Shown: positions 24,502 to 64,000 of the stretch, piece by piece | Numbering within the stretch: position 1 is the first letter of the stretch | How the letters are laid out: every line of letters starts with the position of its first letter | DNA from: a virus | Taxonomy: Duplodnaviria > Caudoviricetes | Strand: one strand, 5' to 3' | Virus record (IMG/VR): IMGVR_UViG_3300021399_000157 | Location: 3,032-67,031 of that record | Length of the DNA: 64,000 bases | Made by a program: the position numbers and the translations under genes | Notes under the pieces: model-generated | What the model was told of the DNA's origin: nothing | Seen by the model: only the letters and a program-made list of their open reading frames with translations | Databases searched by the model: none

Positions 24502-26040
24502 CTATTGTCCTCTCTTCTTCCATATATTATTTAATGCATAGCGTGTGGCATCTATGCAATGGTTGTTTGCATCCACATATCCACTTATGTAATTGTCATC
24601 TTTATCCTTTTCATATTCATATGTACTAAACTCTTCAGTTGCTTCAGGGCATCTTTTAGGGTCTATAACTATTTTTGCTAATGCACTTAACCACTTCATA
24701 GAATATTCAACACTTCCTGCACCTTTTTCTGCACCTCTCATAGAAGCACCATAACTTCTAAAATCTCCTATTGATTTAGGTTCTGCACTATCACTTATAA
24801 TCATATCATTCTCTGTAACTCCCTTTAGGTTCTTTAAATCCTCCCATACATCTGCATTACTTTTCTTATTTACCACATACTCATCAAATATATATAAAGT
24901 CCTAGTTGATGGATTAAACGAACACTTTATCCAAGCAAGAGGGTCAGGAAACCATCCAAAGTCCATTCCCATATAAATATAATCAAAGTTCTCTATCTCT
25001 TTATCAGTTATTTCTCTTAACTCTATATTTTCAAATACTTGACCACCTACACCTGTCATTAATCCTAGATATTCATTCTCATATAACTTCTCATTGATGC
25101 TCTTTAGAAATTCTGCTTCATCTATAAATGCTTGACCTAACCACTTTTTAGGTACTGCTCTATAATCACTTAAGTGTACTAGTCTAGTATCTTTTGGTAT
25201 TAACTTCTCTATATTTACAAAGTGTTGTGTACTTGCAGGTGTATTATATGAATAGAATTGAATAAAATCATCTCCACCTCTTATTAAGGATTGATTTATT
25301 TTTCTTGTTTCATTCATTCCTGCAAATTGGTCAAACTCTTCATACCAAGTTATACCAACATACATATCTTTTGGTGTCTTTAATGATTTAATCTTTCCAT
25401 AATCATCTGCACCTCTAAAGTATATCTTTTGACCTGTACTTAATTTAGTTATCTCTAAAGGTGATTTAGTAAACTTATAATCCTCTTTAATATGTGGATA
25501 TGTTTCTCCTAGTGTATCTACTGCCCATTCTAATTGACTAAATACACTATCCTTTAATGTATCTTTAACTTTTCTTAATACAACACAACACATTTTAGGA
25601 TTTTGTTCTAGTAGTTCAATTATCTTTTCACTTATAAAAGATGATTTGGTACTACCTCTTCCACCTTCTAGATAAAACTCTCTATAATCTCTATCATCTA
25701 TTGCTCTATTTACATCTGCAAAACTAGATGCTATATCTTTAGCAGGTAATACAACATATACTTCTTGCTTCTGTTCATCGTGGTCTTTCTTATCCATTAA
25801 ATCTTGTATTATTTGATAGTTCTTACTACTACCACTTACTGCACCTTTTATTAATCCTAAAGTTGCTAACTCTTGATATGTCTTACCACTTTTTTGCTCT
25901 GTTTGATTTAATAGCATCTCTAGGTCTTGTATCATAGTTCTTTTTCTTCTTCTTGCTTCTCCTGATGCTATTCCACCTTTCTTCGCTTCCTCTTCAGTTA
26001 ATTTGTGTCCTTGAGGTATTAGGTTTTGTTCGTTTGCCAT
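24502..26040 (-). CDS. terL: Terminase large subunit (PBSX-like) with N-terminal TerS-like KGG extension
   Basis: Walker A GGRGSTKS, Walker B WYEE, nuclease GMDFG and NHCIDATRYA; N-terminal MANEQNLIP...AKKGGIASGEARRRKR. Confidence 0.92.
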   Translation of the reverse strand: MANEQNLIPQGHKLTEEEAKKGGIASGEARRRKRTMIQDLEMLLNQTEQKSGKTYQELATLGLIKGAVSGSSKNYQIIQDLMDKKDHDEQKQEVYVVLPAKDIASSFADVNRAIDDRDYREFYLEGGRGSTKSSFISEKIIELLEQNPKMCCVVLRKVKDTLKDSVFSQLEWAVDTLGETYPHIKEDYKFTKSPLEITKLSTGQKIYFRGADDYGKIKSLKTPKDMYVGITWYEEFDQFAGMNETRKINQSLIRGGDDFIQFYSYNTPASTQHFVNIEKLIPKDTRLVHLSDYRAVPKKWLGQAFIDEAEFLKSINEKLYENEYLGLMTGVGGQVFENIELREITDKEIENFDYIYMGMDFGWFPDPLAWIKCSFNPSTRTLYIFDEYVVNKKSNADVWEDLKNLKGVTENDMIISDSAEPKSIGDFRSYGASMRGAEKGAGSVEYSMKWLSALAKIVIDPKRCPEATEEFSTYEYEKDKDDNYISGYVDANNHCIDATRYALNNIWKKRGQ

Positions 26041-26186: not shown

Positions 26187-26486
26187 TTATTTTCTTTTCT
26201 TATTTTCTTTTTCCCATTCACTATATGTAAAACTATCCCATTTTGAATGTGTTGCACCTGATTTACTTACAGGTGGTTTTTTATATTTTTCTTCAAATCT
26301 ATCTACTAGATTATCCACATTATCTTGCCACCAACTACCATAGTCTGCTACATTTTCATTATCATAGTAACTTTCTTCTTCAGGTTCTTTTGCTTTTGCT
26401 ACTGCTTTCTTGCTTGTTTTTTGTATCTTACCTTTGCTACTTGATGCACCTCTTCCACCAAATAATTGTATATTTAACTCTAACAT
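26187..26486 (-). CDS. FGGRG-leader protein 5 (unknown function)
   Basis: Starts MLELNIQLFGGRGASSS. Confidence 0.75.
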   Translation of the reverse strand: MLELNIQLFGGRGASSSKGKIQKTSKKAVAKAKEPEEESYYDNENVADYGSWWQDNVDNLVDRFEEKYKKPPVSKSGATHSKWDSFTYSEWEKENKKRK

Positions 26487-27148
26487 TATTTTAACCTCAC
26501 TTTCACATATATATTACCATTCTTACTCCCTACACTCTCAACTTTATACTTTTGATTTCTTGCAAGTAATACCTCTTTTTGTGGGTCTCTTGCTTCTACC
26601 TCTCTTATCCTTTTAGTAGGTTTCTTCATTATATCCAATCCTCTAGTCTTTTTATTTGTATGTATTTCCATAATGATTGGTTTTGTACTACCAAAAAAGT
26701 ATTTGTTATTTTCTGCTATTCCTAAACTCTTTGTTGTACTCATAAATCCTTTTTCTGTATGGTCTTTATTAATGGCATTGTTTATCCTGTTATTTACTTG
26801 TTTTGCTATACCTTGTGAATATGCACCATTTCCTTTTGAATAAACTCCATATACTAGTTCTTCTACCATATTTGCATATTCACCATCTGTCATATTTCCA
26901 AATATTGCACTTGCATCTGTGGTTCTATATAATATTTCATCCTTTATTTTGTCATTAGTAAGTATATCTAGTTCTTTTAAATATACTTTATCATCATCAG
27001 TAAAGTCTATCTCATCATCTAATCCTCTTAAGTAGTTATTTATCCACATTCCTTGACCACTTACATAATATTCTAAAGACATATCATAGTTGCCTGTTGA
27101 TGATGTAGCACCTCTGCCTCCAAATAGTTGTATATTAAGTTTTAGCAT
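26486..27148 (-). CDS. FGGRG-leader protein 4: R-S-E clade (VIP2/C3-like) ADP-ribosyltransferase
   Basis: MLKLNIQLFGGRGATSS; INNYLRG, LYRTT, GFMSTT, QKEVLLARN. Confidence 0.85.
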   Translation of the reverse strand: MLKLNIQLFGGRGATSSTGNYDMSLEYYVSGQGMWINNYLRGLDDEIDFTDDDKVYLKELDILTNDKIKDEILYRTTDASAIFGNMTDGEYANMVEELVYGVYSKGNGAYSQGIAKQVNNRINNAINKDHTEKGFMSTTKSLGIAENNKYFFGSTKPIIMEIHTNKKTRGLDIMKKPTKRIREVEARDPQKEVLLARNQKYKVESVGSKNGNIYVKVRLK

Positions 27149-30187: not shown

Positions 30188-30217
30188 ACTCTTTATCCTT
30201 TGACTACATTTTAACAC

Positions 30218-30246
30218 AAAATAAAGAAGTAATCAATATTACTTCT
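30218..30246 (-). terminator. Intrinsic terminator closing the ncRNA unit
   Basis: AGAAGTAAT-caat-ATTACTTCT 9 bp stem followed by TTATTTT on minus. Confidence 0.7.
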
Positions 30247-30270
30247 CTAACAGGATAAATGATAATTATC

Positions 30271-30371
30271 GTGCCATTAATAAGCACCATAGAATAGATA
30301 TAATCCTGAACTTGTAGAAACTGCCATTTTCATATCTACTCTATGCTACTTACATTTTTCCTATAAAGCAT
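30271..30371 (-). ncRNA. Structured non-coding element, family copy 2
   Basis: CATAGAATAGATAT / ATATCTACTCTATG arms; GTGC..GCAC flank hairpin. Confidence 0.6.
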
Positions 30372-30410
30372 TTTTTACTAATTTTGAAAAATATAAATAT
30401 AGATAGTTTA

Positions 30411-30535
30411 GGTACTCTTTATAAGTACCATTGAATAGATATATTTGCTAGACTAGACTTCACTTTCCTAATACCTTAAAAGTGTAATTATAGGTTAATA
30501 TATATCTACTCAATGCTACCTACTAGAGATAGCAT
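30411..30535 (-). ncRNA. Structured non-coding element, family copy 3
   Basis: CATTGAATAGATATAT / ATATATCTACTCAATG arms (compensatory change versus copy 2). Confidence 0.6.
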
Positions 30536-30545
30536 CTACCAAAAT

Positions 30546-30660
30546 CACTTATTTTTATAAGCACCACCTAGATAATAAGTATCTAAAGGGTAACAACTCC
30601 TAAAAGACTAAATGAGTTGTATTCATAACTTACTATCTAGGTGCTACCTACAAAGGTAGC
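30546..30660 (-). ncRNA. Structured non-coding element, family copy 4
   Basis: CACCTAGATA / TATCTAGGTG arms; inner ACAACTC / GAGTTGT hairpin. Confidence 0.6.
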
Positions 30661-30700
30661 GTAAGAATAAAAAGGGGCAAGGTATTTTCATACCAACTTA

Positions 30701-30729
30701 ATATTACCACATTTTATATTTTATTGCAA
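30701..30729 (-). promoter_or_regulatory. Sigma70-type promoter (extended -10) driving the ncRNA unit
   Basis: TTGCAA-17 bp-TAATAT preceded by TGn. Confidence 0.65.
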
Positions 30730-30730
30730 A

Positions 30731-30874
30731 TTACTTTTTCTTTTCCTTCTTTAATTGTTTTGCTTTTACTCCTGTATAATCAGGATATTTTAATAAATAT
30801 TTTGTTAAGTCTTGCAGACTTTCTAAATTAAATCTTATATTTCCTTTTGGTGTTTCAATTGTTATTTCATACAT
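30731..30874 (-). CDS. Small protein not in the ORF track (47 aa, MYEITIETPKGNIRFNLESL...)
   Basis: Ortholog at 63778-63915 conserved at protein level with mostly synonymous or conservative DNA changes. Confidence 0.75.
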   Translation of the reverse strand: MYEITIETPKGNIRFNLESLQDLTKYLLKYPDYTGVKAKQLKKEKKK

Positions 30875-30959
30875 TAATTATTTTCCTTTTCGTTAGTAAA
30901 TCTTGGTTTTCCCATTAAAATACTTACTAATCTATTGTAATCAACTAAAAGATATCCAT
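30835..30959 (+). repeat. Direct repeat, left copy (identical to 63876-64000)
   Basis: 125 bp exact match read by eye; the match runs to the window end. Confidence 0.9.
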
Positions 30960-34230: not shown

Positions 34231-34452
34231 TTATTCCTCTGTGTCTTCTTCGTCTTCTTCTGGATCTTCTTCGTCTCTGATGCATTCCCAGTCTAACCTA
34301 CCGTAAGTATATCCGTTATCGTTGCTGAAATATACTGGAGTGTCTTCGTCGAAGTCCATTAACATTCCGATTAGTTCTCCTGCTGTTAATGTGTGTCCTA
34401 CTTGATCTGTGCTATAACCACTTCTATTAGTTTCTAATAATATTTTTTTCAT
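34231..34452 (-). CDS. Hypothetical acidic protein
   Basis: 73 aa; FSNDNGYTYG motif. Confidence 0.6.
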   Translation of the reverse strand: MKKILLETNRSGYSTDQVGHTLTAGELIGMLMDFDEDTPVYFSNDNGYTYGRLDWECIRDEEDPEEDEEDTEE

Positions 34453-34554
34453 ATCCTTTTCTTTCCTTTCATGATTTAATTATTCCATATTTTGTCAACA
34501 TTGTCAATAAAAAAAAGAAAACGTTTTCATAAAATATTTTTCTTTACGTCAATT

Positions 34555-36226: not shown

Positions 36227-36991
36227 TTACTCCGTATAAAAGTCGCTAAAGTCTGTGTATGGTGTAAGATCTTTGGTAGTTAATTCTTTTACTGGCTGAT
36301 TTAAATATCCTTCGAACTTTGTACCGAATAAGGTCTCTGGTCTTATATATCCCTTCATTTTATTATCGTTGATCCATTCTCTGACTTTTTTATCTATGAC
36401 TAATTGAAAGTCCTGTAATGTATATCCTTCGTTTATTCTGGCTCTGATTAGTTCTCTAGTCTTTTTACTAGATGCTCTGTAGTTTGTTCCAGCCATGCTA
36501 TTTAAATGGCTTACAATTTCCTGATACGGAATATTCTCTTTAATAATTAATTCATTAGTTGTTAATTCATTAGTATTTAATTCTTTAGTTATATTATTAT
36601 ATTGTCGTTGATTTTCTAGCGGTTGATTTTCAAGCGGTTGATTTTCTAGCTCTTGTTTTTCTGTCTCTTGTTTTTCTGCTTCTTGTATTGGGTATGGTTT
36701 TTCGTAAATATCGTATAAGTATTCTATTCTTCCTGTCTTTGTTTCGTTCGGCATGAGTTTAGTCACTTTTAAATATCCGAACTTTTTCAACTCATTCAAA
36801 GTACTTTTAATTGAGCTTTCGTTCTCTTTATTGATCGCTACCAGTCCAGCTATGGAATAGTCCCAGCTGTCAGGAAGTGATAGCATCTGACTTAAAAGTC
36901 CTTTGGCTTTTAGTGTCATTTCCTTTTCTTTAAAGTGATAATTACTCATAACGGTATAATCTTTTGTTTTGTTTACTCTTAATACAGCCAT
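36227..36991 (-). CDS. Replication initiator (HTH N-terminus, conserved phage C-terminal domain)
   Basis: LKAKGLL..MLSLPDSWD; YIRPETLFGTKFEGYLNQ. Confidence 0.85.
   Translation of the reverse strand: MAVLRVNKTKDYTVMSNYHFKEKEMTLKAKGLLSQMLSLPDSWDYSIAGLVAINKENESSIKSTLNELKKFGYLKVTKLMPNETKTGRIEYLYDIYEKPYPIQEAEKQETEKQELENQPLENQPLENQRQYNNITKELNTNELTTNELIIKENIPYQEIVSHLNSMAGTNYRASSKKTRELIRARINEGYTLQDFQLVIDKKVREWINDNKMKGYIRPETLFGTKFEGYLNQPVKELTTKDLTPYTDFSDFYTE
36607..36690. repeat. 15-bp iterons in the replication gene (putative phage B origin)
   Basis: GTTGATTTTC(T/A)AGCG x3 followed by TCTTGTTTTTCTG x2. Confidence 0.7.
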
Positions 36992-40944: not shown

Positions 40945-42288
40945 TTGAAAAAAGTTATACGTGTCGGCGGATATGCTAGGGTATCTACTGAGGAACAAAA
41001 AAAATACGGATATTCTATAGACGCTCAGGTAGATAAAATAAAAAAGTATTGTGAATTAAAAAATTATCAACTTGTAGATATGTTTATAGACGAAGGCTTT
41101 ACTGCTTCTAATATGAAACGTCCTAGACTTCTGGATCTTCTTAATAGTTTAGATAAAATAGATGCTATAGTATTTACTCGTCTAGATAGATTTTCTCGTA
41201 ATGTATTAGAAGCTAATAAAATGCTAGCTACGTTACAAAAAAATAGCGTTAGTATGATAGCTATAGAAGAAGAAGATATAAATACTACGGACGCTGACGG
41301 TCTCTTTATGTTTCAATTAAAGGTATCGTTAGCTGAGCGTGAAATAAAAAAAACGTCGGAACGTATCCGCTCTGTATTTGAGTATAAAATCAAAGAAGGA
41401 CAGGTTATATCTGGAGTTACTGCTCTAGGTTATAAGATAGCTACTGTAGACGGAATAAAACGTATGGTTAAAGACGAAGACGAAGCTCCAATAGTTATGG
41501 ATATTTTTAATTACTTTCTAAAATACCAGTCTATACGTGTTGTTACTGATCTTATAAATAAAAAATATGATATAAAAAAGAGTTATCAAGTATACAACCA
41601 CTTATTAAAAAACGAAATATATATAGGTAAGTATCGTAATAATGATAATTTTGTAGATCCGTATATTGATAAAGATACTTTTGATAAAATACAGAAACTT
41701 ATAACTAAAAATATCCGTACTGGAGATAAAAAGTTTACTTATATATTTAGCGGTCTTATTCGTTGTCCTGAGTGTAAAAAGCTACTTACTGGTACTAGAA
41801 CTCTATATAGAGGTCGTTACTACTATTATTATCGTTGTAATAGGCACTACATTTCTAAATGGTGTAGTATGAATAAAAGCTGTAGTGAAAACTTGATAGA
41901 AAAATATCTACTAGAAAATATAGAAACTTTAGTATCTGATCGTATAGCTTATATTAAATCTGTTGAGCCTGCGGATAATGTAAATATTGAAAAAGAAATA
42001 AAGTCTTTACGTGCTGAGCTTGATAACTTAAATTATATCTTTATGAAAAAGCGTATTTCTGTAGCTGAGTATGATCGTCTTTATGAAAAAACCGAAAGTA
42101 AAATAAAAAAGTTGGAGTTATCTCCTTCTAAAAGTGCCGATACTTCTCATTTAACGGCGTTTTTATCTAGTGGCTGGAGAAACGGCTACGATATTATGAA
42201 TAGAGAAAATAAGCGTACTTTATGGCGTAATTTAATTAAAGAAATACACTGTGATAGAGACTATAATATAGAAATTATTTTTTACTAA
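40945..42288 (+). CDS. Large serine recombinase (integrase)
   Basis: YARVST catalytic Ser, RLDRFSRN, recombinase domain, CPEC..C..C zinc ribbon, coiled coil; TTG start. Confidence 0.95.
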   Translation: MKKVIRVGGYARVSTEEQKKYGYSIDAQVDKIKKYCELKNYQLVDMFIDEGFTASNMKRPRLLDLLNSLDKIDAIVFTRLDRFSRNVLEANKMLATLQKNSVSMIAIEEEDINTTDADGLFMFQLKVSLAEREIKKTSERIRSVFEYKIKEGQVISGVTALGYKIATVDGIKRMVKDEDEAPIVMDIFNYFLKYQSIRVVTDLINKKYDIKKSYQVYNHLLKNEIYIGKYRNNDNFVDPYIDKDTFDKIQKLITKNIRTGDKKFTYIFSGLIRCPECKKLLTGTRTLYRGRYYYYYRCNRHYISKWCSMNKSCSENLIEKYLLENIETLVSDRIAYIKSVEPADNVNIEKEIKSLRAELDNLNYIFMKKRISVAEYDRLYEKTESKIKKLELSPSKSADTSHLTAFLSSGWRNGYDIMNRENKRTLWRNLIKEIHCDRDYNIEIIFY

Positions 42289-56367: not shown

Positions 56368-58056
56368 CTATATAACTTGGATAGCGAAGTCCATTTGATT
56401 TAGGAATACGTCTTGTTGTAGTAGATATATAGCGTTTAGCATTGAAACTACCATATCTACTTTTCCTGTTGATTTCTTCTTATGTACGTACATATTTTTA
56501 TTTGTGTCATACGTACAGCGTGCATTCTGGAAGTTAATCTCCAGAAGTGTATTATTTTCATATTGGAACTCTTTCGCTAGTATCTTTTCTTTTAGTAACT
56601 TTGTAGGTGGGTGTAATACGCTAGAATGCTGTCTGATTTCAACGCAGTTATATCCTGCTCTTTCTAGTTTCTGAGCTGTACTAAGTGCGTTCCACCTATC
56701 GTATCCTATAGCTTGGATCTGTACTCCGTATTTATCCTCTAGATTTAATATAAAGTCCTCTACTACTGCGTAGTCTATTACTTTATCTCCGCAGGCTATT
56801 ACTTTTCCTGATCTGATTAATTCTCTATAGTTTACCTTCTCTGTTACTGTCTTTTCTTCTATTCTTCCTTCTGGAATAAATGCGAAGCTGTCGGCTAATA
56901 CGTTGTTATCGTCGTCTACTGTTACCATACTTACGCTGGTATTATCGTTACTTTCTGATAAGTCAAGCCCTACATAAACTATTCTGCCTTTCCAGTCTAT
57001 TTTAGCTTGTTTGCATTCCTGCAAGTCTTTTACGTCTATATATGTTTCTGTTCCTGTTCCCTGATATATGATATTACAATGTTTTGTTACGAAGTTTTCT
57101 CTAGCACTTTCTACAGCTATTGCATAGGCTCTTTTCTTTACTAGGTCGTCCCAGATCTCTGGTATTTCTAGTGCTACTGGGTTGCTTTGTTTTAGGATCA
57201 TATCGTCCGTTTCCCAGTCCTTCGCCTTATCTGGCTCGTATAATAAGCTAAAGCGTGTTTCGTCCTTCTCTAGCCCGTCTAATACTTTTTTTGAGTACTT
57301 TACTTCGTCTTCAAACGGGTTATCTATTGTCGGGTATTTTGTGCTGATTATAAAGCCTAATTTATTTAGTATATTTAATTGTCCTGACTTCATACTCTCG
57401 ATAGCGTAACTTGTTGGTAAAGCTCCTGCTTCGTCTACTATGAAGGCGTTCGGTAATCTTCCGTCTAGTCTACTGGTAGAATAACTTAACGGAATGTACG
57501 TTACCTGAGTTGGCTTGAAAAGAATATAATCTCTCAGGATCTTAAATCTTTTCGTATCTTTGTATTCGTATATTAACGGTGAACTCCTGATTATTTCGCT
57601 TATTGCTTCTCTGACTTCTCTAGATAAGGCACCGTCTGGAGCTACACTAAAGAACTTACTAAACTTCGGCTCTGTTAAAAATAGAAGTATAAAAATAGTT
57701 GCTATTGTGAATGTTTTAAAGTTCTTTCTACATATCTCTAAAAGCCCTATTTCATATCTTCTTTTCTTTTCATTGTCTCGATACACAGTACAAAGAATAG
57801 CAATATAAAAAAGCCATTGATAACCTGCGGTACATTCGTATAGCGTCTGTCCTGCTTTTAGTCCCTTCGGCATTATTAACAGCTTTAAAATGTTATTCAC
57901 TTGTTTTAATTTCTGCTCGCTAATTTTATATTTGCTGTCTTTATCTTCGCAAATGTTTACGAAGTCCTGCATCTGCAATTTAACATATTTAGGAGTAGTC
58001 TTTTTGCTTATTGATAACTTGCAATATTCTAACGCTTTATTATGCATAGTCGTCAC
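56368..58056 (-). CDS. terL: Terminase large subunit (cos/HK97 type)
   Basis: ICRKNFKT, IVDEA, GLDLS, YDRWNA, GKVDMVVSM. Confidence 0.93.
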   Translation of the reverse strand: MTTMHNKALEYCKLSISKKTTPKYVKLQMQDFVNICEDKDSKYKISEQKLKQVNNILKLLIMPKGLKAGQTLYECTAGYQWLFYIAILCTVYRDNEKKRRYEIGLLEICRKNFKTFTIATIFILLFLTEPKFSKFFSVAPDGALSREVREAISEIIRSSPLIYEYKDTKRFKILRDYILFKPTQVTYIPLSYSTSRLDGRLPNAFIVDEAGALPTSYAIESMKSGQLNILNKLGFIISTKYPTIDNPFEDEVKYSKKVLDGLEKDETRFSLLYEPDKAKDWETDDMILKQSNPVALEIPEIWDDLVKKRAYAIAVESARENFVTKHCNIIYQGTGTETYIDVKDLQECKQAKIDWKGRIVYVGLDLSESNDNTSVSMVTVDDDNNVLADSFAFIPEGRIEEKTVTEKVNYRELIRSGKVIACGDKVIDYAVVEDFILNLEDKYGVQIQAIGYDRWNALSTAQKLERAGYNCVEIRQHSSVLHPPTKLLKEKILAKEFQYENNTLLEINFQNARCTYDTNKNMYVHKKKSTGKVDMVVSMLNAIYLLQQDVFLNQMDFAIQVI

Positions 58057-63209: not shown

Positions 63210-63320
63210 GGTACTAATACGTACCTTACTAGATAATAAGCATTCTGATAGTAACAACTCCTAAAAGACTAAATGAGTTGTATTCTTTACCTACTATCTA
63301 GTAAGCTACTTACTAGTATC
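63210..63320 (-). ncRNA. Structured non-coding element, family copy 5 (ortholog of copy 4)
   Basis: CTTACTAGATA / TATCTAGTAAG arms; 35 nt core identical to 30590-30624. Confidence 0.65.
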
Positions 63321-63696
63321 TTTGTAAGTATTTTCTTTTTATAAGTAGCTTACCTTTACTTCCTTTATCCCATTTATGCTCGCTTTCGAACTGTTGGAGT
63401 AAATATTCTATAATTTGTCTTTGATCTTCTGTAGGCTCGGCTCTTTGTTGGTTTATGTATTCAAATATTTTATTTATTGCTATATATGTATCTATATCTT
63501 TATATTCTATCAGGTGTAAATATTGGTGTCCTATTGGCATTAGTAAAGCTCCGTTGCTTATTTCTTGCTTACCTCCGTCACATCTTTTAACTATATGGTG
63601 GAATGTTAAATCTTTTTTTACTAATTTATAGTTAAGCCAGTCTAGATTAGAGTATGGCTTGTAGATTTTTAACATTTCTTTCGTTATATTCTTCAT
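63313..63696 (-). CDS. HNH-like protein (homolog of 29554-29976)
   Basis: LTFHHIVKR.DGG..EISNGALL...HQYLHLIE. Confidence 0.65.
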   Translation of the reverse strand: MKNITKEMLKIYKPYSNLDWLNYKLVKKDLTFHHIVKRCDGGKQEISNGALLMPIGHQYLHLIEYKDIDTYIAINKIFEYINQQRAEPTEDQRQIIEYLLQQFESEHKWDKGSKGKLLIKRKYLQRY

Positions 63697-63777: not shown

Positions 63778-63915
63778 CTATTTTTTCTTTTTTAGTTGTT
63801 TCGCTCTTACTCCTGTATACTCTGGATATTTTAATAGATATTTTTCTAATTCTTTTAGACTTTCTAGATTAAACTTTATATTTCCTTTTGGTGTTTCAAT
63901 TGTTATTTCATACAT
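63778..63915 (-). CDS. Small protein not in the ORF track (45 aa, MYEITIETPKGNIKFNLESL...)
   Basis: Ortholog of 30731-30874. Confidence 0.75.
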   Translation of the reverse strand: MYEITIETPKGNIKFNLESLKELEKYLLKYPEYTGVRAKQLKKKK

Positions 63916-64000
63916 TAATTATTTTCCTTTTCGTTAGTAAATCTTGGTTTTCCCATTAAAATACTTACTAATCTATTGTAATCAACTAAAAGATATCCAT
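63876..64000 (+). repeat. Direct repeat, right copy (truncated by the window end)
   Basis: Identical to 30835-30959. Confidence 0.9.

Follow-up and report, generated by a model that had tools for sequence, protein, structure and literature searches.

A conserved RNA clamp with exchangeable cargo in uncultured gut and rumen phages: a candidate processing chassis for phage small RNAs

What is the role of a highly organized stretch of phage DNA that encodes no protein? The question is raised by positions 30218-30729 of a 64,000-nt sequence (the window, meaning the whole stretch of DNA that was analyzed), which comprises bases 3032-67031 of an IMG/VR virus record (IMGVR_UViG_3300021399_000157; 67 kb, G+C content ~30%) and carries nearly all of its genes on the minus strand. 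No minus-strand open reading frame (ORF) of at least 30 amino acids lies inside 30218-30729. An earlier note had described an ORF-free unit there, consisting of a promoter, a GAAA hairpin, three repeated units with constant stems and variable loops, and a terminator, all of which are visible on the minus strand. The repeated unit is a long hairpin, here called the clamp, that encloses a variable central segment, the cargo. The same module occurs widely in uncultured gut and rumen phages, its loops are interchangeable cargos that include real tRNAs, and it may serve to process and stabilize phage small RNAs.

A covarying clamp on the gene-sense strand

A covariance model (R1), built from 12 short-cargo relatives and run with filters off, identified exactly six significant copies in the window, every one on the minus strand, which is the sense of the genes. 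Three copies are in tandem at 30272-30659 (units A-C), one is located before the terminase gene (unit D), and two are found in the second phage of the record (units E and F). Copies A-E also matched on the plus strand at the same place, with scores ~20-45 bits below those on the minus strand; no plus-strand R1 match was present for copy F. The 18-nt pattern of the clamp arm was found six times in the window, compared to 0.5 times expected. Folded in isolation, each of the six units formed a long hairpin in which two unpaired Gs face each other (z = -3.7 to -6.3), and the fold of the entire 496-nt transcription unit had a z of -7.6.

Read from 5' to 3', the consensus consists of c-UUUAUAG, GUA, G, a stem of at least 14 pairs, the cargo, the returning stem, G, URC and UUAUAAA. 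The bottom of the clamp comprises ~10 paired positions, in which 5' UUUAUAG-GUA pairs with 3' URC-UUAUAAA. Above it is the fixed G opposite G, one helical turn above the helix base, followed by 14 or more covarying pairs. In a model-based alignment of 150 matches, 95.6% of the cells were paired and both sides had changed in 20 of the 24 pairs, figures that lean towards structure since the alignment was made to fit the model and some of its matches lie on the opposite strand. None of 500 shuffles was as good, and slid controls gave 27-47%. The G-G mismatch persists through changes of the triplet beneath it (GUG/CAC, AUU/AGU, and GCU/AGC); the last of these replaces GUA/URC in unit F, where the mismatch and the UUAU tail are retained. 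The units of one array (2-4 per array) have different upper stems, which would be expected if pairing across units has to be prevented. The compensatory stem changes and the invariant mismatch that the earlier note had reported from the window were seen in the window and in about 200 relatives alike, as were its covarying mini-hairpins on both flanks (described below), and the covariation was strong in the larger alignment.

That note had also argued for an RNA in gene sense from a few G-U pairs that would be A-C on the other strand. When elements were detected with G-U counted like any other mismatch, the non-Watson-Crick positions among 93 distinct stems were G-U in 102 cases and A-C in 17. 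This excess indicates that the helix exists on the gene-sense strand as a single-stranded nucleic acid. Furthermore, 179 of 202 elements have the same orientation as the genes around them, a bias of 179 to 9. Together, the G-U excess and the gene orientation point to an element that acts as RNA.

The 18-nt 5' arm was present in more than 118 IMG/VR contigs among the matches listed. An anchored structural scan of 1.1 Mb of IMG/VR loci gave 212 hits, compared to 6 in reversed-sequence controls; with loci from metagenome-assembled genomes (MAGs) added, there were 202 unique elements, compared to 5-6 in the reversed controls. In the genome collection, 19 of 28 matching loci contained the full element. 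Most of the carrier MAGs, in which the element resides in prophages, are from gut or rumen and are labelled Bacilli, 'Tenericutes', Erysipelotrichaceae, Candidatus Coprovivens or Clostridia; the few with other taxonomic labels are perhaps binning errors. Five host MAGs of 1.2-1.6 Mb were searched whole, and no copies were found outside the prophage contig among the 150 candidates, of thousands, that were scored. Rfam did not match the element in the window or in 28 related loci, either at the gathering thresholds or at E up to 5, where only chance-level hits appeared, and BLAST against the deposited phage genomes (INPHARED) gave no real match. As judged by these sequence comparisons, the module is a large RNA family that is absent from Rfam and has no copy in deposited phage genomes.

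The elements occupy ORF-free stretches, with median distances of 182 and 216 nt to the neighboring ORFs, and unit D and many relatives are located between genes. Ordinary tRNA genes lie beside arrays in L145, L037, L109 and L026. Rfam non-coding RNAs (ncRNAs) are found immediately beside clamps as well, namely skipping-rope (L072:3656-3739) and GP20-b (L019:1381-1444), which indicates that these islands gather several kinds of phage ncRNA.

Refoldable flanks and exchangeable cargo

The sequences that flank the clamp can pair with its base to form mini-hairpins. On the upstream side, segment a complements the start of the 5' arm (a', GGUAG with two or three bases of the stem), and on the downstream side, segment b' complements the end of the 3' arm (b, GGURC). 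The mean Watson-Crick run was 6.4 on the 5' side and 4.95 on the 3' side, compared to 3.9 in shuffled flanks on either side, amounting to a clear excess 5' and a moderate one 3'. Segment a tracks the changes in the stem (UGCUACC/GGUAGCA, CACUAYC/GGUAGUG, AAACUAC/GUAGUUU) and covaries with stem positions +1 to +3: at position +1, the pairs between a and the stem were C-G in 88 cases and U-A in 22, and at position +2, A-U in 84 and G-C in 11. Thus, the same bases are under selection to pair with two partners. This three-partner covariation (a, a' and the 3' arm) provides a clean example of an RNA in which both conformations are under selection.

Most commonly, the 5' mini-hairpin extends to 3 nt above the mismatch and its 3' counterpart to 1-2 nt. 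If the clamp is cut, this offset would fit a staggered RNase III-type cut that leaves a 1-2-nt 3' overhang. The bases in the mini-hairpin loops also make up the bottom of the long hairpin, so that the long hairpin and a set of three hairpins with kissing loops look alike in the data. Ensembles predicted with ViennaRNA were a mixture of the long-hairpin and three-hairpin states.

The cargo ranges in length from ~20 to >130 nt and fell into 166 clusters among the 202 elements. Roughly a tenth of the cargos are tRNAs or resemble tRNAs, including tRNA-Trp (three times) and a tRNA-Arg-like RNA with an enlarged anticodon loop. Four cargo tRNAs were called by ARAGORN, all four on the strand of the clamp, and Rfam tRNA matches were located within the clamps of L014, L033, L049 and L013. 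T-arm-like hairpins were enriched tenfold in cargo, and the acceptor stem of several tRNA-like cargos runs on into the clamp. Four tRNA-scoring cargos (L014:901-982; L033:8938-9028; L038, offset 2479, plus strand; L124, offset 335, minus strand) have an enlarged anticodon loop that holds a conserved GCGUACGCAA-like insert; such cargos may mimic tRNAs or be tRNAs that contain an intron.

The clamp and the cargo behave as separate modules. At an orthologous locus in five contigs with flanks that are ~80-91% identical, a single clamp holds five unrelated cargos of 20, 54, 61, 63 and 95 nt (elements E084 in L025, E106 in L040, E035 in L118, E184 in L143 and E042 in L122). The clamp at this locus is followed by a terminator hairpin that is enclosed by the 3' mini-hairpin partner. 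The five contigs constitute a natural cargo-swap series that is well suited to experiments. The cargo of unit A is carried by three different stems across seven contigs, and that of unit B recurs as a conserved RNA in L107, L125 and L018, where two different clamps carry it. Within the window, units A and E have a cargo core in common, and the stem is altered on both arms of E. The presence or absence of units also varies between related contigs; alignments to empty sites were so noisy that the limits of the insertions could not be drawn from them.

In unit F, 14 nt of the loop are antisense to 34452-34465, which spans the ribosome-binding site (RBS) and start codon of a 73-aa gene (34231-34452). 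The match is weak and was equalled by 10 of 200 shuffles.

A proposed processing and stabilizing chassis, and the alternatives

We propose, with a probability of about 0.5, that the clamp is a processing and stabilizing chassis for phage small RNAs that is cut by a double-strand-specific ribonuclease (RNase) such as host RNase III. According to this model, an array would be transcribed as a single precursor, in the window between its own promoter-like site and terminator and in other cases embedded in a tRNA/ncRNA island. A double-strand-specific endonuclease, most likely host RNase III or alternatively Mini-III, would cut both strands just above the G-G mismatch, freeing the cargo as a stem-clamped small RNA that resists exonucleases; a tRNA cargo would leave as a precursor to be matured by RNase P and RNase Z. 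The severed flanks would then refold, such that a 3' mini-hairpin (a/a') closes the upstream piece and a 5' mini-hairpin (b/b') heads the downstream one, and these terminal hairpins would shield the neighboring RNAs. The conserved arms may double as portable homology, allowing cargo to be exchanged between phages.

The chassis is the simplest account of a sense helix with a fixed mismatch, refoldable flanks, ORF-free arrays in tRNA islands and exchangeable cargo, and it fits well because refolding of the flanks uses exactly the bases that a cut just above the mismatch would free. RNase III is encoded in all four host MAGs searched (G001-G004). A candidate Mini-III was found in two of the four at ~20 bits, below the curated cut-off and in a short frame of 128-141 aa; neither enzyme was found in the phage record. 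A processed small-RNA array, one of several functions that the earlier note had put forward, is also the reading that best fits the wider family.

If the proposal is correct, a single standard RNA part is common to many uncultured phages of the gut and rumen and serves to package, release and protect a large repertoire of fast-changing small RNAs. A large set of unstudied phage small RNAs would then become accessible to experiment, with more than 160 types of cargo in this small sample. It would explain how the tRNA/ncRNA islands of phages are built and shuffled, and would supply a natural, compact clamp for stable expression of small RNAs in low-GC Gram-positive bacteria. A broader version, in which one conserved hairpin would give expression, excision and stabilization to any inserted RNA, is tentative, and we are more inclined to doubt than to accept it. 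The clamp would then be a universal small-RNA chassis, the RNA-gene counterpart of an integron cassette, with arms that trade cargos, and the rapidly changing cargos, tRNAs and tRNA mimics among them, would serve as weapons or decoys in conflicts between phage and host or between phages.

By analogy, the closest functional counterparts appear to be the RNase III sites of phages T7 and SP82, ribosomal RNA (rRNA) processing stalks and clusters of primary microRNAs (pri-miRNAs). The processing stalks that flank rRNAs in bacterial rRNA operons and the pri-miRNA stems recognized by Drosha are cut by enzymes of the RNase III family, and the lower stem of animal pri-miRNAs contains a mismatched GHG motif. 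As in these RNAs, the ends of the module pair into a long stem, with several units per precursor, and the mismatch in its lower stem, at a height of about one helical turn, could determine where cutting occurs, as in pri-miRNAs. However, the enzymes and hosts are different and the cargo of the module is unrelated from unit to unit. The likeness is one of analogy and not homology.

The T7 sites R0.3-R18.5, such as R1.1, were reportedly described by Dunn and Studier in 1983, and RNase III sites in the early RNA of Bacillus phage SP82 are said to have been described by Panganiban and Whiteley in the same year. Like the module, these sites are long hairpins on the sense strand in which an internal irregularity has a constant position; they lie between phage genes, as do unit D and many of its relatives, the sites of one phage are conserved in sequence, and their proposed role is a transcript cut that leaves protective hairpins. 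A sense helix of ~20 bp or more, by which such sites are judged, is present in the module as well (24 covarying pairs, and all six units fold). In contrast to the T7 and SP82 sites, the hairpin tip of the module bears interchangeable small RNAs, including tRNAs, in ORF-free arrays, and protection would come from separate flank segments that refold after the presumed cut. R1.1 has been used as a stabilizer (PMC6993053). The module has no sequence likeness to the T7 and SP82 sites, to rRNA stalks or to pri-miRNAs, and none of these carries swappable cargo.

Several observations weigh against the chassis. The covariation backs both conformations, and the three-hairpin form could be the working state. 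By consensus scans, the promoter and terminator of the window array are weak: the promoter-like site at 30701-30729 scored 8/12, under the threshold, and hence was not listed, and the terminator-like hairpin at 30217-30248, which has just two G-C pairs, was not listed either. (We consider both plausible, judging from their sequences.) The mean fold stability of the cargo equals that of coding controls (z = -0.79 and -0.83, respectively), so that many cargos may be unstructured or neutral. No motif is common to all cargos, and in searches of the phage record and of host MAG G001 antisense targets of the cargo did not exceed chance. Finally, RNase III usually needs little sequence, yet the arms are near-identical across many phages, which calls for another reason, either a sequence-specific partner or frequent recombination.

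A protein partner is the core of one alternative, in which the stem with its G-G mismatch docks a phage or host protein, the cargo is an effector or decoy, and the element works as a ribonucleoprotein in the manner of a Y RNA. The strong conservation of the arm sequence in more than 118 contigs (among the matches listed) is consistent with this, and so are the invariance of the mismatch and the tRNA-like cargos with an acceptor stem that continues into the clamp. A conserved stem with a variable module is also the plan of the bacterial and phage Y RNAs, including YrlA (PMC4201824), which have a long stem formed by the ends of the RNA, a variable module able to mimic tRNA, and representatives in phages. 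However, the TROVE/Ro60 gene (PF05731) was absent from the phage record and from the four host MAGs in a search that did detect it in control genomes, the stem consensus has no Ro-binding motif (GNCGAA-type), and the Rfam search gave no match to YrlA; on these grounds, a Y RNA proper was rejected. Only about one-tenth of the cargos are tRNA-like, no protein gene was found consistently adjacent to the element, and the upper stem is freely replaceable. We regard a protein-docking scaffold as unlikely.

We also think it improbable that the element is a bistable switch acting in cis, in which the exchange between the long hairpin and the three-hairpin form would set the stability, termination or translation of the neighboring genes and the loop would be, for the most part, a neutral insertion. 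Such a switch would account for the mutually exclusive pairings, each of them backed by covariation, for the mixture of two states in the predicted ensembles, for the position of unit D, which abuts the terminase RBS, and for a cargo that is not unusually stable. It is difficult to reconcile with tandem arrays that have no gene between units, with a typical distance of ~200 nt from ORFs, with functional tRNAs and conserved RNA classes among the cargos, and with mini-hairpins that are not followed by a U-tract.

The chances are slim that the clamps are self-cleaving ribozymes of a new kind, or an array of guide or antisense RNAs with loops that target nucleic acids of the host or of rival phages; the earlier note had suggested a ribozyme family and guide-like loops. 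The array layout, the extreme variability of the loops at orthologous loci, suggestive of an arms race, and the unit F loop, with its 14-nt complementarity to a gene start in the same record, would suit such a function. However, known ribozyme families were not matched in Rfam (see above), and beyond the G-G mismatch the element has no core of conserved unpaired bases. Also unfavorable are cargo lengths that vary from 20 to >130 nt and complementarity that was within chance both in the phage (10 of 200 shuffles for the 14-mer) and in G001, where the same search with the clamp arms gave no look-alikes outside the prophage region and so no array resembling repeats of the clustered regularly interspaced short palindromic repeat (CRISPR) type. 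A CRISPR array was itself rejected, based on the inverted arms, the range of cargo lengths, and linkers of 41 and 75 nt, which are not uniform. Two further suggestions in that note found no support. The repeats of the module are not direct, unlike the ~36-nt tandem direct repeats of the ToxI/ToxN antitoxin; a search for ToxN (PF13958) gave no match and its control was likewise silent, making it uninformative, and genes neighboring the window array had no assignment in Pfam or PHROG. A dedicated antitermination element does not agree with copies that occupy many kinds of position.

Least probable is an element acting at the DNA level, either an attC-like folded-strand recombination site or a miniature transposon with inverted ends around passenger DNA: the imperfect one-strand hairpin with its conserved base, extrahelical-type mismatch and variable center of ~20-130 nt, the arrays, the exchange of cargo at a fixed locus like a cassette, the presence or absence of units between related contigs, and the tolerance of folded single-stranded DNA for G-T wobble all speak for such an element, the hairpin, the arrays and the cassette-like exchange recalling attC. 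Against it, the RYYYAAC/GTTRRRY core sites are missing (the base of the module being UUUAUAG-GUAG and GGURC-UUAUAAA), there are no ORF cassettes between sites, no tyrosine recombinase such as IntI (PF00589) was found in the 67-kb record by a search that detected its controls, the sole integrase being serine-type, there is no target-site duplication, as the flanks pair and are not repeats, conservation is lacking in the interior (166 cargo clusters from 202 copies) and the orientation follows the genes (179 to 9), unlike in miniature inverted-repeat transposable elements of the Correia, RUP or BOX type, the cargo tRNAs always have the same sense, and the flank hairpins make sense for RNA ends.

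The array in its record

The features of the window are listed in Table 1. An exact 125-bp repeat (30835-30959 and 63876-64000), the presence of two terminase and two portal modules, and a G+C content that differs on either side of ~40 kb suggest that the record consists of two related phages, joined or nested, or is an assembly chimera.

Table 1. Coordinates of the clamp units, array signals and landmark genes in the window.
Feature	Position	Strand	Evidence or remark
Promoter-like TTGCAA-17-TGnTAATAT (extended -10)	30729-30701	-	seen in sequence
GGUAU-GAAA-AUACC hairpin, near predicted transcript start	30694-30681	-	seen in sequence, folds
Unit A, upper stem starts CACCUAGAUA	30659-30549	-	R1 54.2 bits; z = -6.25
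Unit B, standard clamp, cargo of recurring RNA class	30531-30414	-	R1 57 bits
Unit C, standard clamp, 30-nt cargo	30361-30272	-	R1 61.4 bits; folds
A/U-rich hairpin plus U-tract, terminator-like array end	30248-30217	-	sequence and fold
Unit D, solitary, just upstream of RBS of terminase gene (24502-26040)	26151-26055	-	R1 62.4 bits
Unit E, second phage	63321-63209	-	R1 31.5 bits
Unit F, second phage	63173-63099	-	R1 18.7 bits, E = 0.047; folds
Terminase large subunits, two packaging modules	24502-26040 and 56368-58047		
Serine integrase	41080-42288		sole integrase in record
Replication-initiation gene	36227-36991		

No conserved neighbor protein emerged from the family: the commonest protein cluster was found at 19 loci, and HNH-like ORFs lay within 3 kb of 32 of 200 elements. 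Between a ParB-like nuclease gene and the terminase gene in the window is a gene for a 220-aa protein (26486-27148) with a weak PHROG match to ADP-ribosyltransferase toxin-like proteins (E = 3e-6). Directly upstream of unit E is a 127-aa HNH-like ORF (63313-63696), which is 72% identical to a 129-aa family with members no more than 3 kb away from 27 elements of other contigs.
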